This document shows positions 9,152-36,851 of a stretch of DNA of 64,000 nucleotides, in pieces. This DNA comes from a bacterium (lineage in GTDB: Bacteria; UBA8248), in assembly GCA_965261085.1 (NCBI GenBank), contig OZ253442.1:1920001-1984000 (forward strand), given 5' to 3'. Each line of letters opens with the position of its first letter. Positions within the stretch are counted from its first letter, which is position 1. The position numbers were made by a program, and so were the translations under genes. The notes below the pieces were generated by a model. That model saw only the letters and a program-made list of their open reading frames with translations, ran no database searches and was not told the origin of the DNA.

Positions 9152-9784
9152 TTAACTCTCTTCTTTATCCTTTTCGAGCCGTTCCTGCTTCACGCGGGCG
9201 ACCTCGGTCTTGACGTCGTCGATAACGTCTTTGCCCCAGAAGAGCTTTCCCTCCACCACGAACGTGGGGATTCCGAAGATACCCAGACCTTTTCCCTGGG
9301 CGCGCTGGCTGTGCAGTGCGCCGATGTAGCGTCCCTCGGCGATGACGGCTTTGATTTCCTCCCCGTCCAGGCCGACATCCTCACCGAGTTTGGCAATGAC
9401 GTCCAGATCTTCCAGGTTCTGGTCGTCCACCCAGCGGGCCTTGTAGCAGCGGTCCCGAAATTCCTTGAATTTCCCCTTGTCCCGAGCGTAATAGGTAGCC
9501 ATGTGAAGGTTGGTGGTGCGGTAGTCGCCTCCGGCGACCCGGATGGGCACGTCGTACTTATCGGCGAGAGGTTTGTGGTTCGTCTCGTAACTTTCTTTTT
9601 TCCGTTCGGGAGAGTAGCCGGCGAACTCCTGACCGGGGGGTCTTCCCTCCCAGCTGACCCACTCGACGACCACGTCGAGGTCTTCTTCAATCACAGGTAT
9701 GCCACCGACGGTGGCGACGTAGCAAAATGGTCAGGTGTAATCCGAGTATTTCACCACAACAATCGGTTCTTTCAACTCACCCAT
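9152..9784 (-). CDS. DsbA/FrnE-like thioredoxin-fold selenoprotein (UPFC)
   Basis: ATG 9784 with GGAGG; reads MGELKEPIVVVKYSDYT-TGA-PFCYVAT in frame with the 9152..9694 ORF; TGA at 9733-9731; cis-Pro motif GIPTF; hairpin 9701-9715. Confidence 0.85.
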
Positions 9785-9853
9785 GGCGTTGCCTCCGTCT
9801 TGTTTTTAATAGACCTCTTGAATGCCGGTGAATGTATAGCCGCAATTTTCAAT

Positions 9854-11290
9854 TTATACCACTTCGGCGCGGTCGTGGTCGATGGCGTCATGCCCCCCGG
9901 CGCCGATCCAAACTCCCATATTGCGGAGTTCCGTGACAGCTTGTGCGATTTCTTCCTCGTTTCCATTAAACTCGCATACCTGCCACCCGGATTGGGCATC
10001 CAATTCGCTCCGCATGATGTTGATGGAAAACGAATATTTTTTGCCGAGTTCCCACAGAATGGGTTTATCTGCGCAATGACCCGGTATGGAGAGGACGAGC
10101 CGGTTGCATCCCCGGGGTATGGGGGTCGCGTTGATACCGATCGGGCCGCCGTTTTCGAGTCTGGCCAGAAAACCACCGACGATCTCGGTGAGTTTGTCGT
10201 ATTGAACCAGGAAAGCATCGTGCCCATAGGTGGATTCCACCGTATGCAGTTCTACTTCGTAGTCGAGCTTTTGGAGAATCTGAGTGATCTCCATGCTTCT
10301 CTCCGGCGGGAAGAGCCAGTCGGATATGAAGCATACGAGCATACATTTGGTTTTCAGCCGGGATAAGGACGCTTCCAGACTCTCAAAACCCAGGGAGGCG
10401 TCGTATAGGTCCATCATACGAGATATGTATAAATACGAATTAGCGTCGAAACGATCGACGAATTTGTCTCCTTGGTGATCGAGATAGCTTTCCACTTCGA
10501 ACCGCGAGGCGATGTCGTCTAGCATTTTGTCTTTGTCTCTTATCTCACGGCCGAATTTCTCCCACATGATTCCTCGGCTCAGATAGGTGATGTGAGCCAG
10601 CATGCGCGCCGCGCTGAGGCCCTTGCGAGGCCCTTGGCCGGCGTCGTAGTCGCCGTTTTGCCAATCGCCGTCCGCCGTGATGGCCCTGCGGGCGATCTTG
10701 TCCCATGCGATTCCCATCGGGTCCAGGCGCGCGGCTCCCGCGACCGGAATGACAGAATCGCAGAAATCACTGTAGCGCAGGCCCCATTCCAGGGTTTGCA
10801 TCCCGGCGAGCGAGCCGCCGATAACCGTTTTGAGTCGCTTGACGCCCAAGCGATCGAGGAGCAGCTTCTGCACGCGAACTGTGTCCTCTACTGTGATGAC
10901 GGGAAAGCTAGTGTTATAGGCGCTTCCCGTGGCGGGATTGATTGAAGTAGGCCCCGTGGTGCCCGAGCATCCCCCCAAGTTGTTCGAAGAGACGACGAAA
11001 TTTTTCCGGGTATCGATGGCCTTGCCGGGGCCTATCATCGGGTCCCACCAGCCCGGGCGCGGGTCGTCGGGGCTGTGGAAGCCGGCTGCGTGCGCATCGC
11101 CCGTTAGAGCATGGATTACCAGAACGGCATTATCGGCGCTGGGAGAGAGTTTGCCATATGTCTCATATGCAACCTGGATTTCGGGCAATGTTTCGCCAGA
11201 ATCGGTCTGGAACGGCTCGGGAAGGATGATGGTCTGTGTTTTCGTAAGGCCGACTGAAGCGGGGGACTGCGGGAAATTTTTTCGATTCAT
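9854..11290 (-). CDS. metX: homoserine O-acetyltransferase with C-terminal NIL domain
   Basis: HALTGDAH, GWWDPMIGPGK, GGSLAG, RFDANSY, YGHDAFL, followed by an extension resembling NIL (KPILWELGKKYSFSINIMRSEL...GWQVCEFNG...LRNMGV). Confidence 0.9.
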   Translation of the reverse strand: MNRKNFPQSPASVGLTKTQTIILPEPFQTDSGETLPEIQVAYETYGKLSPSADNAVLVIHALTGDAHAAGFHSPDDPRPGWWDPMIGPGKAIDTRKNFVVSSNNLGGCSGTTGPTSINPATGSAYNTSFPVITVEDTVRVQKLLLDRLGVKRLKTVIGGSLAGMQTLEWGLRYSDFCDSVIPVAGAARLDPMGIAWDKIARRAITADGDWQNGDYDAGQGPRKGLSAARMLAHITYLSRGIMWEKFGREIRDKDKMLDDIASRFEVESYLDHQGDKFVDRFDANSYLYISRMMDLYDASLGFESLEASLSRLKTKCMLVCFISDWLFPPERSMEITQILQKLDYEVELHTVESTYGHDAFLVQYDKLTEIVGGFLARLENGGPIGINATPIPRGCNRLVLSIPGHCADKPILWELGKKYSFSINIMRSELDAQSGWQVCEFNGNEEEIAQAVTELRNMGVWIGAGGHDAIDHDRAEVV

Positions 11291-11508
11291 GATTTAGCGT
11301 GATTTCCTTATTTCTAAGACAAAGCTATATACTGATTTGTAGCAAAATTATGTGTTTTGCACACGCTTGTTCAAGTGGATGTTGCTTTTGCTTGTTTTTT
11401 CTTGTTTGCGCAATGGCGGTTGTTACATTTTTCATCAGCGAAACAAAATGCTTTTTGGGTCACGGACTCAGAAAGTCAACGGATTGAGAATGTATTTTCC
11501 GCCGTTTT

Positions 11509-12318
11509 TTGGTGTCTCAAATGATAGTTAGTCCGCGAGATAACCATGTTCGTCTCATTTGTCAGCACGACCACGCCCGGGCCGCAGGTACGATTGCGCG
11601 AAATTGGATAGGTATTGAGTCGCTTCCCTCACCGCCGGATGAACTCAGGGAGAAAGTTTTGTTCGCCGTCGATAACCATGACGTTGGGTGGTGCCGCTCG
11701 GATGCCACGCCGAAATGGGATGAAATGACGAAACTGCCTTATAGTTTTTTTGGCATAACGGCGGACAAGGCGATAGAAATATGGGCGGAAGGAATTGATT
11801 CTTGCGCGTCTTTTCATCCATTTGCCGGTTATTTGGTCAGCCTCCATTTCTCTTCGCTCGCGGAGGGAGGGAGGAGGGGTGCGCCCGGCGAGGTTTCAAG
11901 AGTGTTGAACGGGTTCATTCATTCTGAAGCGAAACGGCAGAAAAAATTGGACGTCCTCATTGAGCCGAGGCACAAAGATGCGATTGTAAATTCCGTGTCG
12001 CTGCTCAGGGTTTGCGATACGTTATCCCTATTGGCATGCCGAGCGCCCGAAATCACCCCGCCCGATAGAGCCGTCCACCCCTTAACGCAAAGTGGATTGA
12101 AAGTGAAAACGGCAAACATGGATGATTTGGAAATATCCCCGTGGCCGTTCTCAAAGGATTCGCTCAAGCTGCGGATGCCGGGGTTGGTCCTGCCGGGTGA
12201 GTATTTTGCAGATGAAAAGGAACTGGCCGAGGCCTTACCCCAGGCGGAACCGATCGTATTTTTAAGTATCCTTAAGCGGTTATCGGAGTATGCGGAACCT
12301 GAAGCTGCGCGGAATTGA
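11509..12318 (+). CDS. DUF3891 family protein
   Basis: LICQHDHARAAG, NHDVGW, LVSLH, CDTLSL, PWPF pattern. Confidence 0.75.
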   Translation: MVSQMIVSPRDNHVRLICQHDHARAAGTIARNWIGIESLPSPPDELREKVLFAVDNHDVGWCRSDATPKWDEMTKLPYSFFGITADKAIEIWAEGIDSCASFHPFAGYLVSLHFSSLAEGGRRGAPGEVSRVLNGFIHSEAKRQKKLDVLIEPRHKDAIVNSVSLLRVCDTLSLLACRAPEITPPDRAVHPLTQSGLKVKTANMDDLEISPWPFSKDSLKLRMPGLVLPGEYFADEKELAEALPQAEPIVFLSILKRLSEYAEPEAARN

Positions 12319-12333
12319 ACTTTTGGAGACGGA

Positions 12334-14493
12334 ATGAAGGACGAAGTTGCCGCTTTAGAGCTAAGTGTCGTCGCCGGAATTGTCTGGCACGAGGGGCGCA
12401 TTCTTATTTGTCAGCGCCCTGCAGGCGGCCACATGCCGGGCTTCTGGGAGTTTCCGGGTGGCAAAATAGAGGGTGGAGAGAACCCCCAGGAAGCCTTGCG
12501 CCGCGAGATTTGTGAGGAACTCGGTATCGAAGTACGCGTTGGACGTCTTCACTGGGAGACCCGACATCGATACCCAGATAGAGATGTACACCTACGCTTT
12601 TATGATTGTGAATGGGAGAGCGGGGTGGTGAAGAATGTAGAGGTGGCCAAGTACGAATGGGCGGATCCTTCCTTATTGGGGTATTTTGATTTCCTGCCGG
12701 CGGATGTGCAGTTGATAGAATCTCTCATGAATGGCGAGAAAATACGAGATTCGGGCAATAGCGCAAAACCCGTTTCAAAGGCTGATTTAAGCGCCGCTTA
12801 TGATACGTGTATGAAAATCGTAGTCGGCCATTACGAGAATTTTCCCGTGGCCTCGAAGTTGCTGCCGGCGAAGATAAGACCGCATGTCGCTGCTGTATAT
12901 GCATTCGCCAGAGGTGCTGATGATATCGCGGATACGGCCAGGCCCGCCCATGAGCGTTTCGCTCGTCTCGATGAATGGGAAGAAAAACTTGTTTTGGCCC
13001 AGAAAGGAGTTGCGGAAACAGACGTTTTCATAGCGCTTTCTCATACGCTTCAGCAATTCGATTTGCCCTTACAACCTTTTCGGGATTTGCTCTCGGCGTT
13101 CAAACAAGACGTCACGGTTCTCCGGTACCCGAACTATGAAACCTTGCTCGATTATTGTCGCCGATCGGCGGATCCCGTCGGGCGAATCGTTCTCATGCTT
13201 CACGGGATCCGTGATGAGGAAGCTTTTCGTGCGTCGGATGCCATATGCACGGCCTTGCAGATTGCGAATCACTTACAGGATGTAAAAGAAGATGCCGAGC
13301 GAGGCATCATCTACATGCCTCAGGACGAGATGAAAAAATTCTCCGTCTCCGAGGATGATTTGCTCGCAGACGTGGCGACACCTCCACTACGCGCATTTCT
13401 GGTTTTTCAGATACAAAGGACGAAGCGCCTCTTCAAGCAGGGCCTGCCTCTTTTGTACCGTACCCGTGGCGCATTGGGCCGTGAGCTTCGTGCGATTTGG
13501 CGCGGAGGCGTCGCGGCGCTGGACTCGATTTCCCGTGAGAATTGGGATGTTTGCGCAGGCTCGCCGCTTTTGAATGGCAGGGATAAGGCCAAGTCGCTGC
13601 TTGCGGCGTTTCGCCCGGTCTATCCACTCGAATCCAATGTGGATCGGCATGCGGAAGAAGAGTTGAACCGTGCCTATTGCCGCTGGTTTATTCGAGCCAG
13701 CAAGTCGAATTTTTATCTGTCTTTTTTTAGCCTGCCCGCGGAGAAAAGGCGCGCCATCACAGCGGTGTATGCGTATTGCCGCATGGCCGACGACATCGCC
13801 GATGAGCCGGGGGAGATATCTGGCAAAAGGACCTTGTTGCGTGAGTGGAAAGAAGCGTTGGCTCAGTTGTGCGAGGAGAGTCCATCCCACCCGATAATCG
13901 GGGAACTCGCGTGGGCGGCGCGAAAATACGACTTGCCGCCGCAGCATTTCCGGGCGATTTGTGATGGGGTGGCGATGGATTTAGAGGAAAGTCGATTTGA
14001 AAATTTCTCAGATCTTGAAAATTATTGCGACAAGGTGGCTTCTGCAGTAGGGCTGGCGTGTCTGGGTATTTTCGGCGCAAAATCGGAGTTTGCGAAAGAA
14101 TATGCCGTTTGTTTGGGAAGAGCGCTTCAGATGACGAACATTTTAAGAGACGTTTGGGAGGATGCGCAGCAAGAGCGCTTTTATATTCCGAGAAGCGAAA
14201 TGCAGAATTATGGTGTAACGGTCTCCGATTTGAGAGACAAAAAAGATACTTCTCAGGTCTTGAGTCTTCTCCAGTTTCTGGCGCATCAGGCGCGTGGATA
14301 TTACGAGCGGGCGAACGAGGCCTTGCGCCACGAGAAAAAAGAGAACCTTCTTCCTGCGAGAATCATGGGCCGAATTTATCGGAGACTTCTAAGTGAAATG
14401 GAGGAGAATCATTTTCGGCACATGGATTATCGCCCCTCATTGAAGTCCAGGGAAAAACTACAAGAAGCGCTTCGCTGTTTTCTGGAATCATAA
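12334..14493 (+). CDS. NUDIX(MutT-like)-HpnC-HpnD fusion (squalene pathway)
   Basis: NUDIX box GGKIEGGENPQEALRREICEELG; HpnC HYENFPVAS..AFARGADDIAD; HpnD SKSNFYLSF..AYCRMADDIAD..QMTNILRDV; one uninterrupted ORF. Confidence 0.9.
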   Translation: MKDEVAALELSVVAGIVWHEGRILICQRPAGGHMPGFWEFPGGKIEGGENPQEALRREICEELGIEVRVGRLHWETRHRYPDRDVHLRFYDCEWESGVVKNVEVAKYEWADPSLLGYFDFLPADVQLIESLMNGEKIRDSGNSAKPVSKADLSAAYDTCMKIVVGHYENFPVASKLLPAKIRPHVAAVYAFARGADDIADTARPAHERFARLDEWEEKLVLAQKGVAETDVFIALSHTLQQFDLPLQPFRDLLSAFKQDVTVLRYPNYETLLDYCRRSADPVGRIVLMLHGIRDEEAFRASDAICTALQIANHLQDVKEDAERGIIYMPQDEMKKFSVSEDDLLADVATPPLRAFLVFQIQRTKRLFKQGLPLLYRTRGALGRELRAIWRGGVAALDSISRENWDVCAGSPLLNGRDKAKSLLAAFRPVYPLESNVDRHAEEELNRAYCRWFIRASKSNFYLSFFSLPAEKRRAITAVYAYCRMADDIADEPGEISGKRTLLREWKEALAQLCEESPSHPIIGELAWAARKYDLPPQHFRAICDGVAMDLEESRFENFSDLENYCDKVASAVGLACLGIFGAKSEFAKEYAVCLGRALQMTNILRDVWEDAQQERFYIPRSEMQNYGVTVSDLRDKKDTSQVLSLLQFLAHQARGYYERANEALRHEKKENLLPARIMGRIYRRLLSEMEENHFRHMDYRPSLKSREKLQEALRCFLES

Positions 14494-15849
14494 ATGTCTG
14501 AGCCTGTCGGATTCGAACGACCGGTTATCATCATCGGAGCCGGCGCAGCGGGATTGTCCGCTGCTTTGCGCCTTGCCGAGTCGGGTACCAAAGTTCTGGT
14601 GCTTGAGGCGGGGAAGCTTCTCGGCGGCCGGGCGCGTAGTTTCATGCATTCGTCCACGGGTTTGGAGTTGGACTGGGGTCCGCATTTGTTTATGGCGGCA
14701 AACCCGGCATTGCGCTCTTTGTTGGAAAGGGTGGGTGCTGCCGATGATGTTTTTTACTCTCCCTCTTTAGAGGTGAGCTACCGTATTTGGGAATCGGAGT
14801 TGGCCAGACGGACGCAATTGTCATTTCCAGAGGGCGGAGGGATTTTTGCGCAACTCCGAGGCTTGCTCAAATGGCGTGGCCCCCGTTTTTGGGAGAAAGT
14901 GAATCTTCTGAAAGGACTTTCGAAGATTATTTCGAAATCGAGTGATGAGATTCCGAATGAATCCATGGGTGAAATGCTCGAGCGTTTTGGCCAGAAAGAT
15001 GAAGCGGTGCGCTGGTTTTGGGAGCCGTTTGCGCGCGCGGTATTGAATTTGCCCTTAGAGCAGGGAAGTGCGGAATTGTTCAAGGCGGTGATCCGCGAGG
15101 CCTTCGCCCATGGCCCGAAAGGGGCCGCCTTAGGAGTGCCGATGAAGGCCCTGAGTGCTTTATGGGCTAACAGAGCCGCGCAAAGCATCCGGCGCCTGGG
15201 AGGAGATGTTAGGCTTCAGCAACCCGCACTCGGTTTTGACGTCAAAAATTCAAAAATGAGCGGTGTGATCCTGAAAGAGCGCGAGATCTTGTATGCAGCC
15301 GCAGTCATTTCCGCCGTGCCGCCGGACGTCCTTGGGAGATTGTTGGGTAACGAACTCAGGGAGCAAACACCTTTTTCGAATCTGGGGAAACTATGTCCGG
15401 GGCCTATCGCCAGTGCATATTGCTGGCTTGAAAAACCGGATGAAGGTCCTCCCTTTGAAGCCATTTTGGATGAGGACTGGGATTGGCTGTTTCGTCCTGA
15501 GGGAAGTGGAGGAAATGCGGGAAATCTGGTGTGCCTGTTGGCCGGTGCGGAGGATTCCATCGCATCTGAGGAACGGTCGATCATTGAGTCGTCTGCGAGA
15601 GATTGCCTTAATCGATTGATGCCCCGTAACCGTACTCGAAGTATTTTGGTGGTGCGAGAGCGTGCCGCTACCTGGGCGAACGGGGTGGCCGAACAAAGCT
15701 CCCGGATGGACACCCAAACGCCTGTAAAGGGTTTCTTTTTGGCTGGAGACTGGACGCGCACAGGTCTGCCGGCCACCGTGGAGGGTGCGGTGAGAAGTGG
15801 AGACAAAGCTGCAGAGACGGTCCTGGAGTATATCAGGGCCGGCACGTAG
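14494..15849 (+). CDS. hpnE: hydroxysqualene dehydroxylase
   Basis: IGAGAAGLSAA, LGGRARSF, LAGDWTRTGLPATVEGAVRSG; abuts the hpnCD gene. Confidence 0.88.
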   Translation: MSEPVGFERPVIIIGAGAAGLSAALRLAESGTKVLVLEAGKLLGGRARSFMHSSTGLELDWGPHLFMAANPALRSLLERVGAADDVFYSPSLEVSYRIWESELARRTQLSFPEGGGIFAQLRGLLKWRGPRFWEKVNLLKGLSKIISKSSDEIPNESMGEMLERFGQKDEAVRWFWEPFARAVLNLPLEQGSAELFKAVIREAFAHGPKGAALGVPMKALSALWANRAAQSIRRLGGDVRLQQPALGFDVKNSKMSGVILKEREILYAAAVISAVPPDVLGRLLGNELREQTPFSNLGKLCPGPIASAYCWLEKPDEGPPFEAILDEDWDWLFRPEGSGGNAGNLVCLLAGAEDSIASEERSIIESSARDCLNRLMPRNRTRSILVVRERAATWANGVAEQSSRMDTQTPVKGFFLAGDWTRTGLPATVEGAVRSGDKAAETVLEYIRAGT

Positions 15850-18855: not shown

Positions 18856-19320
18856 ATGCACTACTTCGAGTTGGCTGAAAATCTGGCTTTCGGGAGCCAA
18901 CCGGGTCGGAAGGATTTGGAATCCCTGGCGAACAAGGGAATAATAACCTTGGTGAATTTGCGTTTTGCCGATGAGGAAGAGCCTGAGCTACCACCCGAGG
19001 CGGAGAGAAAAGCGGCGCAAGAGTTAGGGATGAACTTCGTCCATATTCCCGTAAGCGCCGCGAATATGGACGATGCGTTATCGGGAGAAATCCATGAAGC
19101 ACTCCATGAGACCAGAAAAGATGGCCCGGTATTCGTCCACTGAAAAGGTGTGGGGCGAGCCGGGATTTGCTCGCTGATTCATGTGGCGGAAGAAAATGAT
19201 ATGGGTGGAGACGAGGTGCTGCAAAAGGCGGACGAAATAGGGCTTGACTGGGCAGTTTCCTCCATTGGGGGATATTTTGAAAAATTCGCCAACCAAAGGA
19301 AAAGAACTGGCACATCGTAG
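18856..19320 (+). CDS. DUF442/Blh-like sulfurtransferase or PTP-fold selenoprotein (HUxxxxxR)
   Basis: GSQP, LVNLR..EE, FVHIPV, then GPVFVH-TGA-KGVGRAG; the frame stays open to TAG 19318-19320; hairpin 19155-19174. Confidence 0.85.
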
Positions 19321-22631: not shown

Positions 22632-23405
22632 TTGAACAATTCCCAAATAAAACTCACCGAGAAAGCAGCGGAATGGGTTTTGGAATCTAACTCAACGGTG
22701 TGTCTTACCGGAGCCGGCATAAGTACTGAAAGCGGCATTCCCGATTTCAGGTCCAAAGGAGGGATTTGGGATCGATTTGACCCCAAAGATTTCGATATTC
22801 GCCGATGGCTGGCTTCTGGCGACATACAAAAACGCTACTGGGAAGTCGCTCAAGATGGGTACAACTTGGTCCGAAATGCACTACCCTCTGATGGACATAT
22901 CGCCTTGGCGAGATTATCCCGGCACGGTCGCTTGAAATTACTGGTGACGCAAAATACGGATGGCCTTCACCAGAAAGCGGGCCATGACCCGGAGAAGATT
23001 GTGGAGTTGCACGGGACGAGTCATCTGTGTGTTTGTGTGGGGTGTGGGGCTAAATTGCCTCGCCCCGAGGTGCACGTGCGGGTTCAGGGCGGTGAAACAA
23101 TACCAAAGTGCAAGGACTGTGGATGCCTGCTGAAGCCGGATGCCGTTTTCTTTGGAGAGGGGTTGTCCCCGGAAAAGTTGTCCCGGGCCGTTGATGCTTC
23201 TAAAGAGGCCGATGTTTTCCTGGTCGCCGGTTCCTCATTGTCGGTGAGGCCGGCGGGCGGCTTGCCCGAGCGCGCCCGCAAAGCTGGCGCGCGCCTCATC
23301 ATCATAAACGAAGGCCCCACTCGTTTTGACGCCAAAGCGGACATACGGATTCAGGGAAAAACGGGTGATGTTCTACCTGCGCTCGTAGATGCGGTTCTTG
23401 CCTGA
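22632..23405 (+). CDS. cobB: NAD-dependent protein deacylase (sirtuin)
   Basis: TGAGISTESGIPDFR, TQNTDGLH, ELHG, CxxC..CxxC, LKPDAVFFGE; probable TTG start at 22632. Confidence 0.9.
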   Translation: MNNSQIKLTEKAAEWVLESNSTVCLTGAGISTESGIPDFRSKGGIWDRFDPKDFDIRRWLASGDIQKRYWEVAQDGYNLVRNALPSDGHIALARLSRHGRLKLLVTQNTDGLHQKAGHDPEKIVELHGTSHLCVCVGCGAKLPRPEVHVRVQGGETIPKCKDCGCLLKPDAVFFGEGLSPEKLSRAVDASKEADVFLVAGSSLSVRPAGGLPERARKAGARLIIINEGPTRFDAKADIRIQGKTGDVLPALVDAVLA

Positions 23406-23570: not shown

Positions 23571-24506
23571 GTGGCCACGCATGAACTGGATACCACTGTC
23601 GATACCTGCCATTGGGGGTTTTATGATTCCGCCCTCGCTCCCGTCATGACAATCGCCTCTGGCGATACGCTCGTCGTGAAAACCGAATCGGGGCGGAAAG
23701 ATTTTTTAAAAAAATATCCAGAGAGACTTTCTGAAAATCTCAGAAAAATTTTGGAGACCATGGAGCCGGGCCCGGGGGCGCATATCATGACGGGCCCCGT
23801 GGCCATCGAGGGCGCCGAGCCCGGCGACGTGTTGGAAATCAAGATTCATGAGGTCAAACCCCGCTATGATTGGGGCTACAACGGATTCAGACCCTTGGTG
23901 GGCGGTCTGCCGGAGGATTTTCCTTATACGAGAATGGTGATTGTCGAGGTTGACGAAGAGAACGGAACGGGTGACTGGGGCGCGGGGGTCAAGGTGCCGC
24001 TCGGGCCTTTTTTCGGGAATTTCGGGGTGGCGCCGTCTTCAGCGCTTGGGCGTGTGCCCACGATTCCGCCCGGGGAGTGGGGAGGAAACACGGATTGTAA
24101 GGAATTTACGGCCGGCTCGACGATTTATTTGCCGATTTTCAACGAAAGCGCTTTATTCTCCGCGGGAGACGGGCATGGCTGCCAGGGGGACGGTGAGGCG
24201 AATATCAACGGGATAGAGATGGGCCTCATCGGTACTTTCGTGATGAACGTTCGCAAGGACATGAACATCAAAACGCCGCGCGCGGAAACGAAATCTCACT
24301 ACATTTTGATGGGTTTTGATCCGATTTTGGATAATGCGGCGAAGATGGCTTTACGGGAGACGATTCAATTCCTGGGTGAGCTTCGCGGCATGAGCCCCGA
24401 TGATGCGTATAGGCTATGCAGCTTGGCGGTCGACCTGCGCGTCACCCAAATCGTGAACGGAACCAAGGGCGTTCACGCGATGGTGCCCAAATCTTTGTTT
24501 GAATGA
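23571..24506 (+). CDS. acetamidase/formamidase family protein (paralog 1)
   Basis: HIMTGPV, GAEPGD, GGNTD, GDGHGCQGDGE, AYRLCSL. Confidence 0.9.
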   Translation: MATHELDTTVDTCHWGFYDSALAPVMTIASGDTLVVKTESGRKDFLKKYPERLSENLRKILETMEPGPGAHIMTGPVAIEGAEPGDVLEIKIHEVKPRYDWGYNGFRPLVGGLPEDFPYTRMVIVEVDEENGTGDWGAGVKVPLGPFFGNFGVAPSSALGRVPTIPPGEWGGNTDCKEFTAGSTIYLPIFNESALFSAGDGHGCQGDGEANINGIEMGLIGTFVMNVRKDMNIKTPRAETKSHYILMGFDPILDNAAKMALRETIQFLGELRGMSPDDAYRLCSLAVDLRVTQIVNGTKGVHAMVPKSLFE

Positions 24507-24531
24507 GTTTCATTTTTAGAAGGGGCCATCG

Positions 24532-25479
24532 TTGCCCGAGCACGTGATTACGCAAAACCCCGACAACATTCAGTGGGGTTATTATGACGCCGTACTTTCT
24601 CCGGTTCTCACCGTGGTTTCGGGCGATGTGATCGAAATTCACACGGAACCGGGAATCAGGACCCTTGAGTCTCCGATTCGAGAAAGAGCGTCTGAAAACC
24701 TGCGTCATATAGCCGAGCGCGGAAAGAGGGATCTGGGCGGCCATATCCTCACGGGACCCATCGCGGTGGAAGGGGCCGTGGCGGGAGATGTCCTGGAGGT
24801 GAGATTTCTGGATATCTGGCCGCGCTATGATTGGGGCTTTAACGTCATCCGGCCCCTAGCGGGAGGTTTACCCGAGGATTTCCCGTATTCGAGAACAGTG
24901 ATCGTGGAAATCGACGAAGAGACGAATACAGGTGACTGGGGAGCAGGCGTGAAAGTGCCGCTTAGTCCTTATTTCGGTAATTTCGGTGTGGCGCCGCCCA
25001 GCGATTTTGGTCGTGTTCCATCCACTCCTCCGGGAATCTGGGGAGGAAACATGGACAACAAGGAACTCATCGCGGGTTCTCGCGCTTATCTTCCCGTATT
25101 CCACGATGGCGCTTTGTTCGCAATAGGTGACGGACACGGCTGCCAAGGGGATGGAGAGAGCTGTCTGTCGGCCTTGGAATGCGGTATGTCCGCGAAAATC
25201 GAACTCATTGTCCGAAAAGATTTGAATTTGGAAATGCCCCGCGCGGAGACGACCACGCATCATGTTCTCATGGGATTCGACCCTATTCTCGATAACGCAG
25301 CCAAAATGGCTCTCAGGGAGACAATCAAGTTTTTGGGGAAATTGTGTGGCATGAGCAAAGATGATGCGTATACGTTGTGCAGCCTGGCCGTGGATCTGCG
25401 CATTACGCAGATTGTGAATGGGGTCAAAGGCGTTCACGCGATGCTGCCGAAAGAAATTCTTGATGAAGGAGTGTGTTGA
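24532..25479 (+). CDS. acetamidase/formamidase family protein (paralog 2)
   Basis: HILTGPI, GGNMD, GDGHGCQGDGE. Confidence 0.9.
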   Translation: MPEHVITQNPDNIQWGYYDAVLSPVLTVVSGDVIEIHTEPGIRTLESPIRERASENLRHIAERGKRDLGGHILTGPIAVEGAVAGDVLEVRFLDIWPRYDWGFNVIRPLAGGLPEDFPYSRTVIVEIDEETNTGDWGAGVKVPLSPYFGNFGVAPPSDFGRVPSTPPGIWGGNMDNKELIAGSRAYLPVFHDGALFAIGDGHGCQGDGESCLSALECGMSAKIELIVRKDLNLEMPRAETTTHHVLMGFDPILDNAAKMALRETIKFLGKLCGMSKDDAYTLCSLAVDLRITQIVNGVKGVHAMLPKEILDEGVC

Positions 25480-26414
25480 TGGCGACTCATGAATTGGTTG
25501 CGAATCCGGATACCGTTCATTGGGGTCATTATGACGCCTCACTGGAGCCTGTGATGCGGATTCGCTCCGGCGATACGCTGGAGGTTCATACGGAATCCGG
25601 CAGAGAAGAATATCTGGCGGAACTCGGAGAACGGGCATCCCGGAATTTGCGGGATATTGTTTCGCAAGTCCCCCAAGAACTTGGTCCCCATATCATGACG
25701 GGCCCTGTCTCTATAGAAGATGCTCGGCCTGGAGACGTGCTGGAAGTTCGTATCCACGAGGTCAAGACGCGCTATGACTGGGGATATAACTCCATCCGGC
25801 CGATGATGGGAGGATTACCGGAAGATTTTCCGTATACGCGCACCGTCATAGTGGATCTCGATTTGGAAGCGCAAACAGGAGACTGGGGCGCGGGCGTCAA
25901 GGTGCCTCTGCGGCCGTATTTCGGGAATTTTGGTGTGGCGCCCCCGCCTTCCGTAGGCCGGGTGGGGAGCTATCCTCCGGGCGCCTGGGGCGGGAATTTG
26001 GATAACAAAGAACTCATTTCGGGTTCTATCGCCTATTTCCCTATTTTCAATGAGGGCGCGTTGTTTTCCGTAGGCGATGGGCATGGCTGCCAGGGAGATG
26101 GGGAGGCTTGCTTGACGGCCATTGAAACGGGCCTCTCGGGGACGATGGAAATTATCGTCCGAAAGGATTTGCACTTGGAAAATCCCCGTGCGGAAACCGA
26201 TACGCATTATATCTTGATGGGGTTTGACCCCATCCTTGATAACGCGGCCAAAATGGCGCTCCGGGAGACGATTCAGTTTCTCGGAGAGTTGCGAGGCATG
26301 AGCAGAGATGACGCCTATACGCTTTGCAGCCTCGCTGTGGACTTGCGGGTCACGCAAATCGTGAATGGCGTGAAAGGGGTTCACGCCATGCTGCCGAAAT
26401 CATTATTCACATAA
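25479..26414 (+). CDS. acetamidase/formamidase family protein (paralog 3)
   Basis: HIMTGPV, GGNLD, GDGHGCQGDGE; the start overlaps the previous stop. Confidence 0.9.
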   Translation: MATHELVANPDTVHWGHYDASLEPVMRIRSGDTLEVHTESGREEYLAELGERASRNLRDIVSQVPQELGPHIMTGPVSIEDARPGDVLEVRIHEVKTRYDWGYNSIRPMMGGLPEDFPYTRTVIVDLDLEAQTGDWGAGVKVPLRPYFGNFGVAPPPSVGRVGSYPPGAWGGNLDNKELISGSIAYFPIFNEGALFSVGDGHGCQGDGEACLTAIETGLSGTMEIIVRKDLHLENPRAETDTHYILMGFDPILDNAAKMALRETIQFLGELRGMSRDDAYTLCSLAVDLRVTQIVNGVKGVHAMLPKSLFT

Positions 26415-30264: not shown

Positions 30265-31161
30265 TTACTCGTTGAAAACCAGAATAATCGTACCCAGAAA
30301 GATGGTAAGCGCACCTGCAAAGACGCGCCAGTTCATTTTCTCTTCTGACTGGAGAAAAACCCACGATATCGCGATAACGAACAAAGGCCTTGATTGTGAG
30401 ATGGGGAAAGCATAGACAACGGGTGCATGTGCCAGCGCGAGATATAAAAACGTGACGCCGAGGCTTGCCGACAGACCGGCCAAAAGTAGAAATTTCCAGT
30501 TGCTTGGGGTCCAGTTTTTGATTTCGCTTATTTTTCCTTTGCGGAAGAGGAAAGGCAAAAAAGCTGCTACCGCAAAAATGTTGGAATAAAAGTTCGCCTC
30601 GTTGGCGGAGGTGAAGAACCTCACCGATGGCCGCACAAGCACCGCGGCCGCTCCAAAGGCCAGTGCGCAACCGAGAGCCAATCCCATTCCGATGTACGGG
30701 TTTCTCGGGGATTCCCCCCCTTGATGATTGGCATGACTCCTGGCAATGAAAATGTATCCACCAAACACCAGGAGGGCGCCCAGTCCGATGGTTGATGTAA
30801 GCGCTTCTCCCAGCAAGGTGACGCCAAGGAAAACGGCGAATATCAGATTCGTCGCGACGATGGCGCTCGTACGTGCGGACCCGATGTGTTGCGTGGCTGC
30901 GAAGAGCATAGTACGCGCAACGCAGACTCTGAAAATCCCCGCGATGGCGATGAAAAGAAGAGGCCAGCCGAAACCCGGCCAAGGGTCAAAAAAATCTCCT
31001 CTCAAAACGGAGACAGTCCAGAGAATGGGGAGACCGATGACAGCGGTGAAGGCTGTCCCCGTGATGGGATTTATGCCACGAACCGCGAAGCGTCCGAAGA
31101 TATCCCTTAGCGCAAGCAGAATTGCTGATATGAGGGCGTATACGGCGGCTGTCTCAAACAC
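30265..31161 (-). CDS. DMT/EamA family transporter
   Basis: About 10 hydrophobic segments in two repeats; LLGEAL and EEKMNW loop motifs. Confidence 0.85.
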   Translation of the reverse strand: MFETAAVYALISAILLALRDIFGRFAVRGINPITGTAFTAVIGLPILWTVSVLRGDFFDPWPGFGWPLLFIAIAGIFRVCVARTMLFAATQHIGSARTSAIVATNLIFAVFLGVTLLGEALTSTIGLGALLVFGGYIFIARSHANHQGGESPRNPYIGMGLALGCALAFGAAAVLVRPSVRFFTSANEANFYSNIFAVAAFLPFLFRKGKISEIKNWTPSNWKFLLLAGLSASLGVTFLYLALAHAPVVYAFPISQSRPLFVIAISWVFLQSEEKMNWRVFAGALTIFLGTIILVFNE

Positions 31162-31214
31162 CCCCGCATTATAGAAAAGTGTACGTGCGCATCAAAGCGC
31201 TTTTGGTCTGTTCG

Positions 31215-32189
31215 TTAAACTCTCAGTACGGAAGCTGGGTGTTGCGCGCGTTCGAGGACGAAGTCGGCCATCAGCGGCCAGGGATCGAAGCCGATGACAT
31301 TTTGCGCATCGTCCACGAAATTGGAGAGTGCGTTGATGTCGTAATAATATATTTCCCCATCTTTATCATTGACCAAATACTCGACGCCGCCGACTTCTAT
31401 GCCGGCTTTCCGCATGATTTTCTCGACCGTATTTATTACTTGTTGCGGGGGTGTGATTTTCTCAACCAAAGCATTCCTACCGTTCACGCCACACGCAATT
31501 TCTTCGTTTCGGCGGCAATAACTGCCCGGGCAGAGATTAAAGGAGTTCGGGTCCACCAATGCCAGTTGAATCGCATAAAGAAACTCACCATTTAGAATTT
31601 CGACTCGGATAATTTGCTCTCCACGCGGCGGAATGTATTCCTGAACGAGAGCCACATTGTCGATGCCAAAATCGATGCTCGCTTCATCCGCCGCCTTTTG
31701 GAGTTCTTGGGGCGTATCATATTTTTGTATCCCGGCGCCGCTTCCGCCAATGTTCGCCTTCGTGATGATAGGGAAGCTGAATCCCTCGGCCGCCGAAGGG
31801 GCCTGCGAGGGATGGTTTATCACCCGTGACTTCGGGTGATTGACGCCCAGGTTCTTGAGTAGACGGGTTTGCCGCACTTTTGAGAATTCATGGAGATAGG
31901 CCTCATAGCCGTTGATCACGTTGGCGCCAATCGCTTGGAGATGCGCGCAATATTCGAGCGTGTAGGGAATCGCATGTGTATGCCCGCGCGCCCATGCAGA
32001 TGGGCTCATCCGGTTTACAATCAACGAATAAGGCGATTCTGTTTCCGTCGGGTCGAAGCGGTGGTTGTGGGCTTCTATTTTTTCATATTCCACACCTCGC
32101 CTGTCGAGTTCATCGAAAAGCTTATTGAACCAATCGGGGTGTTCATAATAAACAGCGATGGGATGGGCAGAACCGTTTAGGTCACTCAC
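31215..32189 (-). CDS. ATP-grasp ligase (RimK/glutathione synthase-like)
   Basis: NRMSPSA, KANIGGSGAGI, VQEYIP, GGVEY, YDINALSNF. Confidence 0.85.
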   Translation of the reverse strand: MSDLNGSAHPIAVYYEHPDWFNKLFDELDRRGVEYEKIEAHNHRFDPTETESPYSLIVNRMSPSAWARGHTHAIPYTLEYCAHLQAIGANVINGYEAYLHEFSKVRQTRLLKNLGVNHPKSRVINHPSQAPSAAEGFSFPIITKANIGGSGAGIQKYDTPQELQKAADEASIDFGIDNVALVQEYIPPRGEQIIRVEILNGEFLYAIQLALVDPNSFNLCPGSYCRRNEEIACGVNGRNALVEKITPPQQVINTVEKIMRKAGIEVGGVEYLVNDKDGEIYYYDINALSNFVDDAQNVIGFDPWPLMADFVLERAQHPASVLRV

Positions 32190-32638
32190 CGGAGCACATT
32201 CTCCTCAAATTTTAGCGTATCGAGTACTTGTTGGATTCGTTCATCGACTATCTCGATCATCTTGGGATGAAATCCGAGGTGCGGACCTAAAATGACGTCG
32301 ATATCAGGGTATTTCCTCCGGCCTTCTTTAATGAAGACGGGCAAATCCACCTTCACGTGATTGCCCCTGAAAAGAAAGTAAGGGATGACGATGATTCTCT
32401 CTGCCCCATTCTCTACACACAAGTCGATTCCTTCGGGGATGGAAGGGTGGCTGATCTCCAAAAATGCGGCCTCTAGTATGCGATGCGGCCAGGCTTTCCG
32501 AAAATGATCCACGACGAGGAAAAGCGCATCGTTGGCGTTTTGGGCGCGGCTGCCGTGACCGACGAGCAATACCGCCGTTTTCACTTGGTCCTCGGATGTC
32601 TCGTCCAAAAATTCTAATTGCTTTTCTAGGCTAGGCAT
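32186..32638 (-). CDS. sirohydrochlorin chelatase (CbiX/SirB family)
   Basis: LLVGHGSR, AFLE..PSI, PYFLFRGNHVKVDLP; exact start uncertain. Confidence 0.88.
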   Translation of the reverse strand: MPSLEKQLEFLDETSEDQVKTAVLLVGHGSRAQNANDALFLVVDHFRKAWPHRILEAAFLEISHPSIPEGIDLCVENGAERIIVIPYFLFRGNHVKVDLPVFIKEGRRKYPDIDVILGPHLGFHPKMIEIVDERIQQVLDTLKFEENVLR

Positions 32639-34431
32639 TCGCCTTCTCCTCTTTCCAATACGTATTGTTTGTCCTGACTCCAATCGATGAACAAATCAGA
32701 ATCAGGCTCATCGTTGAATTGACCAACAAGGTGAAACTCTTGCAACAGGTCTTCGAAAGACGCACTGCCCTGACGATCCAAAAACTCGTTGAAACGCTCG
32801 CCTTCGCTCCTGTATTCCTGGTAGTGAGACAACATCTTCTTCAGTGCATCGGGAACACGCTTCGCAGGAATTCGAACCTGTATACGTTTGCCGATGCGGA
32901 TTTCTCCATCAGTGCTATCGTATTGGCCACCGAGGAAAATTTCATAAGCAGGCAGCATCGCGCCGTTCGCTCTAAGCGTTCCTCCATGAAAGCCGATGTT
33001 GGCGATATGGTGCTGGCCGCACGAATTCGGGCAACCGCTCATCTTGATGTGCATCTCCCGCGTGAGCGGGTCCTGATCGACTTCTTGGAGTGTTTCGCGC
33101 ATGGCGTTCGCCAAGCCCATTGAGGAGGTAATGCCGAGCTTGCATGAATCCGTTCCCGGGCAGGAAACCACATCAGATATCTCGCGGGCGCCTTTTTCGG
33201 CGAGTCCGATGCGATGAAGCTCTTTCCATAGGGGATAAAGCTCTCCTTCGCGCACCCATCTGAGGACAAGGTTTTGCTCGAAACTCGTTCTTGCGCGGCC
33301 TCTCGCAAAACGCCGGGTGAGGTCGGCTAAGGCGAAGAACTGACCTGTAAGAATATTTCCCAATGGTAGCTTGATCTCGACGGCGAAATAGCCTTCTTGC
33401 CTCTGCGCGGTGACGTTTGTATTTCTCCAGGCGTAATAATCCGCCGCATCGCCATTCGGGTTTGCTGCCACGCAGTTCAAGGTGTTCAAGACGGGTGGAG
33501 CGTCGGCTTCTTCATCATCTTTCCAAAGATAGGGCTCGGGATTGATGGGCTCTTTCGCCCAATCCTTCTTGAGCTCCTCCTCGACACGCTCGCGCAGTCC
33601 GTCTATACCGATCCAACTCACCAAAAACTTAATGCGCGCCTTGAAGCGGGATTTGCGGAGTTCAGCAGCCTGGTCAAAAACCCGGATAAGGGCTTCGCTC
33701 ACCCTCAGGAAATCGGACACCGGAACGAATTCGTACAGCACTTCAGCGGTACGCGCGAAAGTGGCGAGGCCGCCGCCAACGAGCATCTTGAAGCCATGCA
33801 CGGGGATTCCTTCCACTTCTTTAATGAGGGGAATGAACCCAATGTCATGAATTCCGCCGACTACGCAGTCCGAAGAACAACTGGAGAACGCCACTTTGAA
33901 TTTGCGCGGTAGGTCCTGTGTGAAATCCTTACGAACGAAGTAACGGGCGAAGGCACCTGCATATGGTGTGGTATCGAAAACCTGATCCTTACAAACGCCC
34001 GCATAGGGACAACCGGTGACGTTTCTCACGCTATTTCCACATGCTTCACGCGTGGTTAGCCCCACTTCGCCCAGAAGTCTCAAAACATCAGCGGCCTCGT
34101 CGAGAGGGACGAAATGAAACTGCACGTTTTCCCGTGTCGTGACGTGGCCTTTTCCTAATGGCGCGAAATCACGGGATACGCGCCCCAGGGCTTCGAGTTG
34201 CGAAGCACTCAGGCCGCCGAAAGGTATTTTCACGCGCACCATCTGAACATCCGCCTGACGCTGCCCATATACGCCGCGTCTTAGCCGATAGGGAAGAAAC
34301 TCGCTGTTATCGATTTCACCGTTTCGGAACCTGGTGGCTTGCGTTTCAAAATCATCTAATTCTTCGGGAATCACCGGAATGACGCCCAATGTTTCCCGGG
34401 ATAGTGGTTTTCGTGATTCTTCGTGCATCAC
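32626..34431 (-). CDS. siroheme nitrite/sulfite reductase (ferredoxin-dependent type)
   Basis: GVYGQRQ, TTRENVQ, CGNSVRNV, LPRKFK, SCPGTDSC and SGCPNSCGQH ligands. Confidence 0.92.
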   Translation of the reverse strand: MMHEESRKPLSRETLGVIPVIPEELDDFETQATRFRNGEIDNSEFLPYRLRRGVYGQRQADVQMVRVKIPFGGLSASQLEALGRVSRDFAPLGKGHVTTRENVQFHFVPLDEAADVLRLLGEVGLTTREACGNSVRNVTGCPYAGVCKDQVFDTTPYAGAFARYFVRKDFTQDLPRKFKVAFSSCSSDCVVGGIHDIGFIPLIKEVEGIPVHGFKMLVGGGLATFARTAEVLYEFVPVSDFLRVSEALIRVFDQAAELRKSRFKARIKFLVSWIGIDGLRERVEEELKKDWAKEPINPEPYLWKDDEEADAPPVLNTLNCVAANPNGDAADYYAWRNTNVTAQRQEGYFAVEIKLPLGNILTGQFFALADLTRRFARGRARTSFEQNLVLRWVREGELYPLWKELHRIGLAEKGAREISDVVSCPGTDSCKLGITSSMGLANAMRETLQEVDQDPLTREMHIKMSGCPNSCGQHHIANIGFHGGTLRANGAMLPAYEIFLGGQYDSTDGEIRIGKRIQVRIPAKRVPDALKKMLSHYQEYRSEGERFNEFLDRQGSASFEDLLQEFHLVGQFNDEPDSDLFIDWSQDKQYVLERGEGECLA

Positions 34432-34498
34432 ATGCTCCTCACGTGAACAGCTAAGTAAATATCGGATGATGAATGGGAGTCAGGCCGAAGCCCGGCTT

Positions 34499-35308
34499 TT
34501 ACGAAATGGCTTTGTTTAAGAATGCTTCCGGGAGACAGCGCCAGGAGATTTCTTGACTTTCATCGGCCTCGAACCAAACCAGGTCTTCAAGGCCGGCGAC
34601 TGGGCCTACGAGAAAAACAGCAGGTGGAGATATTTCTTCGCGTTGCGCGAGACTAGATGCTTCTCCCAAAAGACAGCGGTAGGCTGACTGCCTGTTGGTG
34701 GTTCCATTTTCAATAATGGCGGTGGGCGTGTCTTTCGACATTCCGTTTTCGATCAGAGCGGCTGATATGCGTCCGATGGAGCGTGCGCCCATGAGGAAAA
34801 CGAGTGTCCCCCTATCCTTCGCCAGATGCGCATAATCCACCTGTGTTTTCGGTTTGCCGGGATCTTCATGGGCGGTCACGACGGTGAACGATGAGGCGAT
34901 GTTTCGGTGTGTGACGGGTATTCCCGCATAGGTGGGCACAGCCAAGGCGGAACTGATTCCTGGTATGATTTCAAAATGAACACCGGCTTCTGCCAGGGCT
35001 TGCGCCTCCTCGCCGCCACGCCCGAACACGAAAGGGTCCCCACCTTTCAGGCGCACCACCTGAAAACCACGATGAGCGAAATGGATGAGAGATTTGTTGA
35101 TGTCATCTTGATTCATGATATGACGGCCGCTGGATTTTCCAGCATTGATGAGTTCGCAGCTTTCCGGGCAAAGTTGTAGAATCTCAGGGTTCACGAGGCG
35201 GTCATAAATCACCACGTCCGCATTTGATAAGGCTTTCGCCGCCTTGAGTGTAAGCAAGTCCGGGTCCCCAGGACCTGCTCCCACAATATGCACCTTTCCT
35301 TGATACAT
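34499..35308 (-). CDS. cobA: uroporphyrinogen-III C-methyltransferase
   Basis: VGAGPGDPDLLT, VRLKGGDPFVFGRGGEE, GIPVTHR. Confidence 0.95.
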   Translation of the reverse strand: MYQGKVHIVGAGPGDPDLLTLKAAKALSNADVVIYDRLVNPEILQLCPESCELINAGKSSGRHIMNQDDINKSLIHFAHRGFQVVRLKGGDPFVFGRGGEEAQALAEAGVHFEIIPGISSALAVPTYAGIPVTHRNIASSFTVVTAHEDPGKPKTQVDYAHLAKDRGTLVFLMGARSIGRISAALIENGMSKDTPTAIIENGTTNRQSAYRCLLGEASSLAQREEISPPAVFLVGPVAGLEDLVWFEADESQEISWRCLPEAFLNKAIS

Positions 35309-35347
35309 GAGAGATTCCTATCTAAAGTCTAATTTTTTCTTTTTATT

Positions 35348-35366
35348 GTTAAGTAGATTACTTAAC
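35348..35366. promoter_or_regulatory. palindromic operator candidate
   Basis: Perfect 8-3-8 inverted repeat GTTAAGTA-gat-TACTTAAC in the AT-rich divergent promoter region. Confidence 0.45.
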
Positions 35367-35483
35367 TTTTTCGGAAAATATTCCGCTTTTGTACTTTTGT
35401 CAACCCAATCAAGCGTTTATTCTTAGGTTGTTTTGTCTGGGATGATGTTGTAGATGTCCATCGCTATAGAGAAGGTGCGAATA

Positions 35484-36083
35484 ATGAGTGAAAAACCCAA
35501 GTGTTTTGAAGTTGCTTTGCGTCTCATCGATGAAGCGAATTCGCAGGATCCGAATACCGAGAAATTCGAGGGCGAAGATTACCCCAAAGAGCTTTTGTAT
35601 TCGATGAGAATGACAAAATGGCTCGAAACCGTGGAGCCGCACGCTTCCGAAGCCCTGCGTCTGGCGGTTCGCAGTCAACATATACGCCGGTGGGACATTC
35701 CTCGATCGGATTATCCTCCCGGTCGGAAAGGATATCACCAATGGCGGACCCGTCTTTACGACTATCATGGGGAGAAAGCGGCCGAAATTCTCAAAAAGGT
35801 GGATTACGATGAGGAAACAATAGCCCGTGTGCGAATGCTGTTGAAAAAGCAGGGTTTGAAGACCAACACGGAAACCCAGACACTCGAGGATGTCGCCTGT
35901 TTGGTGTTTTTGGAGAGTTATTTATGGGATTTCTCCCGGCTGTATGATGAGGAGAAAATCATCGACATCTTGCGGAAAACGTGGCGGAAAATGTCCGCGC
36001 GCGGACAGGAGGCCGCCAGGGAGCTTTCCTTGAATGCAGGTGCGGGAGCGTTGTTGCACAAGGCGCTCGCGCCTGAAAATTAG
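35484..36083 (+). CDS. DUF4202 domain protein
   Basis: IDEANSQDP, PKELLY, QHIRRW..PR..YP.GR.GY..WR, QTLEDVACLVFL. Confidence 0.85.
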   Translation: MSEKPKCFEVALRLIDEANSQDPNTEKFEGEDYPKELLYSMRMTKWLETVEPHASEALRLAVRSQHIRRWDIPRSDYPPGRKGYHQWRTRLYDYHGEKAAEILKKVDYDEETIARVRMLLKKQGLKTNTETQTLEDVACLVFLESYLWDFSRLYDEEKIIDILRKTWRKMSARGQEAARELSLNAGAGALLHKALAPEN

Positions 36084-36191
36084 TGGGAAACGGCTATTTT
36101 CAAAAGCTTTAACCCCGCTTTCTCATCCGCGTTCTTGTGGTGTATGATTCGGGCGCAATGTTTCTTTATGGCTCATCTTAAGGAGAAAATC

Positions 36192-36851
36192 ATGAACGTC
36201 ACCATGTGGAACTGCTACGTCTGACCTTACGCATATAGGGCCATGGAATGGCTCGTTCGCCTTCAGGAGAAAAGAAGCGATCTGAAAGTGGATTACAAGG
36301 CCTTCGTGCTGGAGCAGGCGAATTTCGGCCCGGCGCGGGGCGAGGACTGGAAAGCCTGGGAAGACAAGACTTTCCCGAGCAGGGATCTCCCCCCGCATCA
36401 GGCGGCCAAGTGCGCGGCGCTGCAGGGCGAGACGCAGTTCGACAAGTACCACGTGGCGCTCCACCGGGCGAGGCACCGCGACGGCAAGGATATCACCAGC
36501 GAGCTGGTTCTGCGCGATATCGCCGTGGAGGTGGGCCTCGACGTCGATCGCTGGGAGGAGGACATGAAGAGCGGCGCCACCATCCCCTTCATCGCGCAAG
36601 AGCATGAGGACGCGGCGGAGCAGGGCATTTTCGGCGTTCCCACGCTCGATTTCGGCGAGGGCAAGCCCGTTTTCGTGAAACTAGAGGAAGGCGATTGGGA
36701 AAACGAGGGCGATGAGCAGGGTCTGCTCGACGCCGTAAAGGCCACCTCGGCCGAGCGGCCCTATTTGTTGGAGCTCAAGACGCCCGAATCCGCCAAGCGC
36801 AGCTCTTCCTCTTCGAAGAAGTATGAGAAATATGGGGTGAAGGCGCGATAA
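36192..36851 (+). CDS. DsbA-like thioredoxin-fold selenoprotein (CYVUPYA)
   Basis: AAGGAG then ATG 36192: MNVTMWNCYV-TGA-PYAYRAMEW in frame with the 36243 ORF; TGA 36222-36224; FGVPTL cis-Pro motif; hairpin 36238-36254. Confidence 0.85.

Follow-up and report, generated by a model that had tools for sequence, protein, structure and literature searches.

The DNA analysed here is a stretch of 64,000 nucleotides (nt) from a UBA8248 bacterium (assembly GCA_965261085.1, contig OZ253442.1, positions 1,920,001 to 1,984,000), hereafter the window. It contains three unrelated genes, A, B and C, each with one TGA codon in frame. In our reading, to which we assign a probability of about 93%, all three are intact selenoprotein genes whose UGA is translated as selenocysteine (Sec, U) via the standard bacterial route. 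The integrity of the genes, a Sec machinery, the conservation of the TGA and an enrichment of hairpins behind it are demonstrated in the following sections, and from these we infer Sec insertion itself and the biochemical activities of all three proteins. The observation as such lies far beyond chance. The genes, their Sec codons and the hairpins of the selenocysteine insertion sequence (SECIS) type are located in the window as follows (aa, amino acid residues):

Gene A, 9784..9152, minus strand: DsbA/FrnE-like selenoprotein, 210 aa, U18 (..KYSDYT-U-PFCYV..), ATG at 9784 behind GGAGG
Sec codon (UGA) of A, 9731..9733, minus strand: this column holds TGA in all 30 loci retrieved
SECIS-type hairpin of A, 9701..9715, minus strand: GCCACC-GUC-GGUGGC, 15 nt past UGA
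Gene B, 18856..19320, plus strand: DUF442 protein with protein tyrosine phosphatase (PTP) fold, 'sulfur transferase'-type selenoprotein, 154 aa, U96 (..GPVFVH-U-KGVGRAG..)
Sec codon (UGA) of B, 19141..19143, plus strand: TGA at this column in 32/32 loci (B and paralogues)
SECIS-type hairpin of B, 19154..19175, plus strand: GGCGAGC-CGGGAUUU-GCUCGCU, 10 nt past UGA
Gene C, 36192..36851, plus strand: DsbA-like 'CPYA' single-Cys selenoprotein, 219 aa, U11 (MNVTMWNCYV-U-PYAYRA..)
Sec codon (UGA) of C, 36222..36224, plus strand: TGA at this column in 28/28 loci
SECIS-type hairpin of C, 36238..36254, plus strand: GGGCCAU-GGA-AUGGCUC, 13 nt past UGA

The three genes and their UGA codons

Translation of TGA as U yields one continuous frame for each of the three genes, a domain spans every U, and the U columns align with cysteines (Cys) of known proteins. 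The original prediction had placed the three TGA codons at these positions, in frames open on both sides and in place of the active-site Cys, and our analysis agrees with it in each respect.

Protein A affiliates with the Pfam family DSBA (PF01323; 92.7 bits, cut-off 25.6 bits) over residues 10-194, a region which includes U, and carries the motif UxxC (UPFC). Its best sequence match in the PDB is FrnE from Deinococcus radiodurans (5cnw/5cp1, E 7e-15), in which the first Cys of CPWC aligns with U. FrnE is a cytoplasmic protein of the DsbA family whose CPWC corresponds to the UPFC of A; in contrast to A, it carries Cys instead of Sec, has 260 instead of 210 aa and ends in a C-terminal tail. By this affiliation, A would act in the cytoplasm as a thiol-disulfide oxidoreductase of the FrnE/DsbA type, with U-x-x-C as its centre. 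Both the domain and the location of Sec, which takes the place of the first Cys in CxxC, are those of the DsbA-like selenoprotein form 1 (PF01323, UxxC) as given in Table 1 of a recent review (PMC13188914). Also in common with this form, A has no evident signal peptide and has a hairpin after the UGA. A is a member of the known DsbA-like selenoprotein family and nothing new in kind. The same genome encodes a Sec paralogue of A with 70% identity at 1195432-1196061. On the plus strand of the window, a frame of 414 aa (9122-10366) lies open antisense to A and to an alpha/beta-hydrolase gene. This open reading frame (ORF) is in all probability a spurious one of the G+C-rich sequence, and a gene caller might choose it over the truncated A.

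Protein C, the likely start of which is the ATG at 36192 preceded by AAGGAG, also matches DSBA (64.2-65.6 bits vs the cut-off of 25.6 bits) with U inside the domain. In the nearest solved relative, a Cys protein (PDB: 7dk9), the residue aligned to U is the Cys of 'FLCPYAW'. The motif is UPYA, i.e. not UxxC, with Ala at the position of the second Cys, and in 26 of 28 orthologues a Cys is located at position -3 of U (C-x-x-U). Sec would be the nucleophile in a DsbA fold of the single-nucleophile 'CPYA' type, with the Cys three residues upstream as a possible resolving partner. C shares the domain and the position of Sec with the form 1 listed in the review and differs from it by UPYA and the Cys at -3. 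Because Ala replaces the second Cys and the Cys at -3 is conserved, C corresponds neither to the listed UxxC form nor to the crotonase-fused DxxUP form. It is a UxxA variant with C-x-x-U inside the known DsbA-like selenoprotein family and, like A, nothing new in kind.

Protein B affiliates with BLH_phosphatase (PF04273) over residues 6-102 with 34.0 bits (gathering score 26.1), and its paralogue in the same genome scores 52.3 bits. The NCBIfam models Blh (NF040641) and TIGR01244 extend the match to residues 131-135; no selenoprotein-specific NCBIfam model matches B. Matches to Pfam PTP-NADK and PTP-SAK were also obtained. In the alignment to solved structures, U falls on the catalytic Cys of the PTP loop VHC..GR. 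An exhaustive HMMER search with B retrieved 1199 relatives at E<=0.001. When 21 of these were aligned together with B and its paralogue, 16 of the 17 full-length proteins had the Cys of VHC(X)4R in the column of U, and two distant B-like fragments of 94-95 aa stop exactly ahead of this column. AlphaFold2 modelled B confidently on either side of U96, with a predicted local distance difference test score (pLDDT) of 95.5 over the whole length and a predicted template modelling score (pTM) of 0.90. With this model as query, Foldseek retrieved at the top the DUF442 structures 3gxh, 3gxg and 2f46 (E 2.5e-8 to 9e-8, 146-152 columns), followed by phosphatases of the PTP and dual-specificity (DUSP) types. 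In the predicted structure, the part encoded past the TGA is integral to the fold. The original prediction had also expected such genes to be mis-annotated as truncated, and for B this is what the databases hold: all 28 close homologues found among 5.8 billion proteins are fragments of 84-95 aa that end no later than the TGA and span residues 1-95 at the most. One of them is named 'sulfur transferase domain-containing protein'.

Sec machinery, codon conservation and hairpins

The genome (4.27 Mb, a single contig, 58.7% G+C) encodes the complete set of selA, selB, selC and selD, all of which were located. The tRNA-Sec (selC) is present in one copy with the anticodon tca. It scores 75.9 bits on RF01852 (cut-off 47 bits), is called tRNA-SeC(tca) by ARAGORN and is the sole UGA reader among 52 tRNAs. 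SelB (TIGR00475, 384 bits, cut-off 242), SelA (TIGR00474, 579 bits, cut-off 268) and SelD (TIGR00476, 336 bits, cut-off 125) are well above their thresholds, and selD itself carries one in-frame TGA. The absence of tRNA-Sec or SelB, which had been named as an observation that would speak against selenoproteins, is therefore not the case here. In the standard route, SelD would make selenophosphate, SelA would convert Ser-tRNA(Sec), and SelB-GTP would deliver Sec-tRNA(Sec) to the ribosome on binding a hairpin inside the coding sequence, 10-15 nt past the UGA. As predicted from the window, TGA still acts as a stop elsewhere. It is the commonest stop codon of the genome, and because it ends ORFs at 2699..2701 and 23403..23405 of the window as well as 859 of the 1853 ORFs with 350 aa or more in the whole genome, the genetic code is not reassigned.

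For the conservation of the codon, 40 genomes of relatives were searched, 24 from the same family and 16 from outside it. TGA-bearing orthologues of A were found in all 24 family genomes, and TGA homologues in five of seven genomes of one class-level family. B is present in 24/24 family genomes, most of which have a second TGA paralogue, and in 0/16 outside. C is encoded in 23 of the 24 family genomes (the 24th has only a contig-end fragment) and in 9/9 order- and class-level genomes. The aligned codon is TGA in all 90 fetched loci, at identities down to approximately 37%: 30/30 in the A group, 32/32 for B and its paralogues and 28/28 in the C group, counts that mix orthologue and paralogue loci. 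A lack of conservation in sister genomes, the second observation named in advance as contrary evidence, was thus not encountered. For A and C, the TGA is also kept in class-level relatives with 37-57% identity. The gene order A-B-C is maintained in relatives as well, e.g. at 2.977, 2.987 and 3.004 Mb in the genome G008.

The descriptor for candidate SECIS hairpins required a perfect stem with 5 bp or more and a loop of 3-9 nt which has G as its first or second base and begins 16-37 nt from the U of UGA, according to the limits in the bSECISearch literature. G-containing hairpins had been proposed 11-15 nt after each TGA. Hairpins with G in the loop were found at 15 nt for A (6-bp stem, loop GUC, -8.9 kcal/mol), at 10 nt for B, or 11 nt without the closing G.U pair (7-bp stem, loop CGGGAUUU, -10.6 kcal/mol), and at 13 nt for C (7-bp stem, loop GGA, -7.6 kcal/mol). 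Among 5000 control Cys codons, an equal or better hairpin followed in 4.4% (A), 2.0% (B) and 7.7% (C) of the cases. Genome-wide, a descriptor hairpin of -6 kcal/mol or below was detected past 39 of 56 Sec codons, compared with rates of 12% for Cys codons (n = 1500) and 9% for TGA stops (n = 1000); the 56 Sec codons are not independent cases because paralogues share hairpins by descent. At least one descriptor hairpin occurs in 12 of 16 selenoprotein families, and the loop starts of the Sec-codon hairpins are concentrated at distances of 17-28 nt, counted from the U of UGA.

In the orthologues, the stems remain paired in 86.2% of cells for A (slid controls 36-68%), 100% for B and 92.9% for C (slid controls 35-55%), compared with 34-68% in the slid controls overall. 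One pair of the C stem varies between U-A, U.G and C-G. In A, synonymous sites are almost frozen in the stem and the loop site is variable. The strongest RNA-level signal is that of B: codons +4 and +6 to +10 are represented by one codon each in 32/32 sequences, among them paralogues with 37-46% protein identity, whereas neighbouring conserved codons use three to five.

One element of the original prediction could not be sustained, namely that the three hairpins might seed a lineage-specific SECIS covariance model. MAFFT places their stems in different columns and yields no common structure; they have only a shape in common and, because they are not alignable in register, are unable to seed such a model. 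The shape descriptor finds 70% of the Sec codons but, at the rates given above, also Cys codons (12%) and TGA stops (9%), and is far too unspecific for approximately 20,000 in-frame TGAs. As the 39 good hairpins vary in stem, loop and spacer length, the information they hold is expected to be far too low for a 4.3-Mb genome. No Rfam SECIS family was detected in the window at the gathering score, and five Sec-gene loci were equally negative with a threshold of E<=1.

Several observations weigh against our reading of the three genes. The assembly is one contig but is rated 5.27% contaminated. The FrnE alignment across the active site of A is weak by itself. B reaches 48.3 bits on TIGR01244, under the cut-off of 85.85 bits, and is by its sequence a distant relative and not a filed member of that family. 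Its coding score past the TGA is near zero (-0.1), and the reading of B rests on homology and the fold model. The minimum free energy (MFE) of the 60 nt past Sec codons is about that past Cys codons (-17.8 vs -17.4 kcal/mol) and only the position-specific descriptor separates the two, hence the presence of a hairpin is by itself uninformative in this G+C-rich genome. Compensatory changes are few (two cells in C, matched by 133 of 500 shuffles; six cells in A; only A-U/G.U in the stem of B), too few for a statistical claim of covariation. Lastly, the support is drawn from sequences and predicted structure.

Two other explanations of the codons have to be compared with Sec insertion. The TGAs could be real stops and A, B and C pseudogenes or pairs of short genes, with downstream frames open by chance in a G+C-rich genome. 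This is how gene callers handle them, the homologues of B are without exception (28/28) fragments of 84-95 aa, and approximately 124 of 183 read-through candidates of our genome-wide TGA scan were artefacts of this sort. Yet a single domain extends across each TGA, the codon keeps its alignment column in all 90 loci, even at 37% protein identity, and the protein is conserved on both sides, and the fold model of B requires both halves, all of which makes real stops extremely improbable. Recoding into something other than Sec, at least at times, is nearly as improbable: UGA might be read as Cys via the Sec pathway under selenium (Se) shortage, or by a near-cognate tRNA. Sec-tRNA pathways can insert Cys when Se is limiting, and sequence data do not distinguish the two residues at the ribosome. 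The full Sec machinery is nevertheless retained, including a Sec-containing SelD, together with at least 57 genes of the Sec type, and in the DsbA-like, rhodanese and CoA-transferase-like families TGA-free copies exist beside TGA copies. Since Sec and Cys paralogues coexist, the difference between the two residues appears to matter, which favours Sec insertion.

Predicted function of protein B

In B, Sec would take the place of Cys in the C(X)4R loop of a small DUF442 protein with PTP fold. In the TIGR01244 family, sulfurtransferase activity is demonstrated only for the DUF442 domain of Blh from Xylella, where it was measured with thiosulfate (PMC5823870). By likeness to this domain, B most likely shuttles sulfane sulfur via a Se-S intermediate. 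The fold and the position of the C(X)4R loop agree with the DUF442/TIGR01244 domain as found in Xylella Blh, NMA1982 (PDB: 2f46) and 3gxh. In contrast to these proteins, B has Sec instead of Cys, stands alone with 154 aa, lacks a dioxygenase domain and does not reach the TIGR01244 cut-off. A similar exchange is known from rhodanese-type selenoproteins (PF00581, UxxG), in which the Cys that forms the persulfide in a sulfur transferase loop is likewise substituted by Sec, although in a rhodanese fold and not in the PTP-like fold of DUF442.

The PTP fold also allows a different function, in which B is not a sulfur transferase and uses its Sec nucleophile as a phosphatase of protein-Tyr/Ser or phosphoinositide. 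Many of the Foldseek matches with PTP/DUSP fold are active phosphatases (Tk-PTP, TpbA, KAP), and the Pfam matches to PTP-NADK and PTP-SAK point in the same direction. Against it, the best matches are the DUF442 structures 3gxh and 2f46 together with the Blh sulfur transferase/dioxygenase model NF040641, the loop C(X)4R is one residue shorter than the C(X)5R of PTPs, and the activity reported for the Blh domain is that of a sulfurtransferase. In addition, the paralogue of B is encoded 28 nt behind the gene of an OsmC-type selenoprotein. We consider a phosphatase unlikely, a judgement that concerns the function of B only, and prefer sulfur transfer. The OsmC-like gene and the B paralogue are located on the same strand at genome positions 1090037-1091072 (L080, 5203-5760 and 5789-6238) and probably form one operon.

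Selenoproteome, novelty and neighbouring genes

The original prediction inferred a large selenoproteome from the three genes of the window. A genome-wide scan for TGA codons confirmed this with 57 supported genes and two further conserved ones. Of 20,142 in-frame TGAs at the outset, 3,576 remained after a permissive coding filter, and 202 had a U-U or U-Cys alignment within the genome. Clusters with all members at least 72% identical and four repeat or insertion sequence (IS) families, recognized by peptide context, were dropped before the Pfam scan, which covered 178 candidates and five extra ones (183), a subset being also compared with NCBIfam. The scan is blind to Sec at most 8 codons from the C-terminus or at most 3 codons from the start. 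In the 57 genes, U is inside the matching domain or within the alignment to a diverged paralogue; in four GrdB-type genes it follows directly after. They distribute as follows:

AhpD/CMD-like: 15 genes
UGSC: 8 genes
DsbA-like: 6 genes
AhpC/redoxin/deiodinase-like: 6 genes
OsmC-like: 5 genes
GrdA: 2 genes
GrdB: 2 genes
PrdB/GrdB-like: 2 genes
Rhodanese: 2 genes
DUF442: 2 genes
DsrE, Grx, Grx-DinB, Trx, MGMT, DUF3179 and SelD: 1 gene each

The two conserved genes beyond the 57 encode a CoA-transferase-like protein and a zinc ribbon protein. The first resembles subunit A of CoA transferases (genome 3112727-3113563; L127, 101-937), matches PF01144 over residues 23-240 and has its TGA at residue 119 ('TEHA-U-ASV'). 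A TGA copy was found in 18/18 genomes of the same genus, and paralogues with 47-49% identity have no stop at this position. It is possibly another selenoprotein family outside the published list. The second, a LysW-like zinc ribbon (genome 582342-582638, minus strand; L068, 104-400), is encoded directly downstream of a Sec glutaredoxin gene and carries its TGA at the position of the final Cys in the second CxxC pair ('CGN-U-AG'). At least one TGA is present in 11/11 genus-level matches, six of which have two, and three of five class-level matches have none.

A selenoproteome of this size has precedents. In the BSepDB paper (2026, PMC13326102), three UBA8248 metagenome-assembled genomes, there assigned to 'Nitrospinota', are listed with 54, 50 and 48 genes among the ten bacteria richest in selenoprotein genes, numbers of the same order as the 57-59 found here. 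The description of the organism as rich in selenoproteins is right, though already in print for the host lineage. The three Sec genes of the window are no more than mildly clustered: with 59 genes in 4.27 Mb, the Poisson probability of three or more in 64 kb is 0.06. Counting two genes just upstream of the window, five Sec genes are located within approximately 48 kb; these two (genome 1907937-1912093, 8-12 kb ahead of the window) encode an AhpC/TlpA-like ('TFA-U-INC') and a DsbA-like protein ('YH-U-PWA').

More genes with TGA at a Cys position are expected in this genome and would be ordinary, unless their family is unlisted. The 2026 review (PMC13188914) tabulates 119 selenoprotein families, including the DsbA-like forms 1 (UxxC) and 2 (DxxUP), UGSC, OsmC-like, CMD-like, DUF3179 and MGMT; as far as its table lists them, no DUF442, PF04273, TIGR01244, PTP-like or CoA-transferase family is among them. 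A literature search returned, within the library covered, nothing linking DUF442 with selenocysteine and, judged by titles and the beginnings of abstracts, none of the matches listed for TIGR01244/PF04273 deals with selenoproteins. B thus seems to be the only part with real novelty potential, as a Sec-containing version of the DUF442 sulfur-transferase fold, in comparison with the table of the review and not with the family list of BSepDB. The prospects are evenly balanced that B and its paralogue constitute an unlisted selenoprotein family, i.e. PTP-fold DUF442 sulfur transferases with Sec in the C(X)4R loop and a frozen SECIS hairpin, restricted to the 24 family genomes among the 40, which together with the CoA-transferase-like protein and the zinc ribbon would bring the genome to 59 selenoprotein genes, near the published bacterial record of 63. 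If this is true, B extends the use of Sec to a PTP-fold sulfur-transferase scaffold and offers a natural Sec/Cys pair for studies of persulfide and perselenide transfer. The truncation at the TGA in public databases, seen in 28/28 homologues of B, would be systematic for such genes, and metabolic reconstructions of the lineage would therefore miss dozens of redox enzymes.

The approximately 124 candidates rejected from the 183 were adjacent genes in one frame, antisense ORFs, IS elements and TraN/TraF pairs. The sites 51744 and 12316 of the window likewise each represent two adjacent genes in one frame and not a selenoprotein. The largest false clusters of the scan arose from in-frame TGAs in sense and antisense direction of an IS transposase ('..ADQ-U-GVHV..' and '..SAAA-U-PSI..'). 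A degenerate copy of this transposase gene, which has approximately 12-23 copies in the genome and an IS family judged by eye, is located at 44570-45817 (plus strand) of the window. The TraN-TraF pairs of F-type conjugative transfer at genome positions 229345-231225 and 1178267-1180129 are 76% identical and belong to larger duplicated regions (approximately 0.22-0.24, 1.16-1.19 and 2.49-2.51 Mb), which look like integrated conjugative elements.

Among the other genes of the window, an ORF of 719 aa (12334-14493) combines a NUDIX domain with two squalene/phytoene-synthase stretches and is followed directly by a gene of the amine-oxidase type (14494-15849, phytoene-desaturase-like). Three tandem paralogues of the acetamidase/formamidase family (PF03069), each of approximately 311-315 aa, are encoded at 23571-26414.

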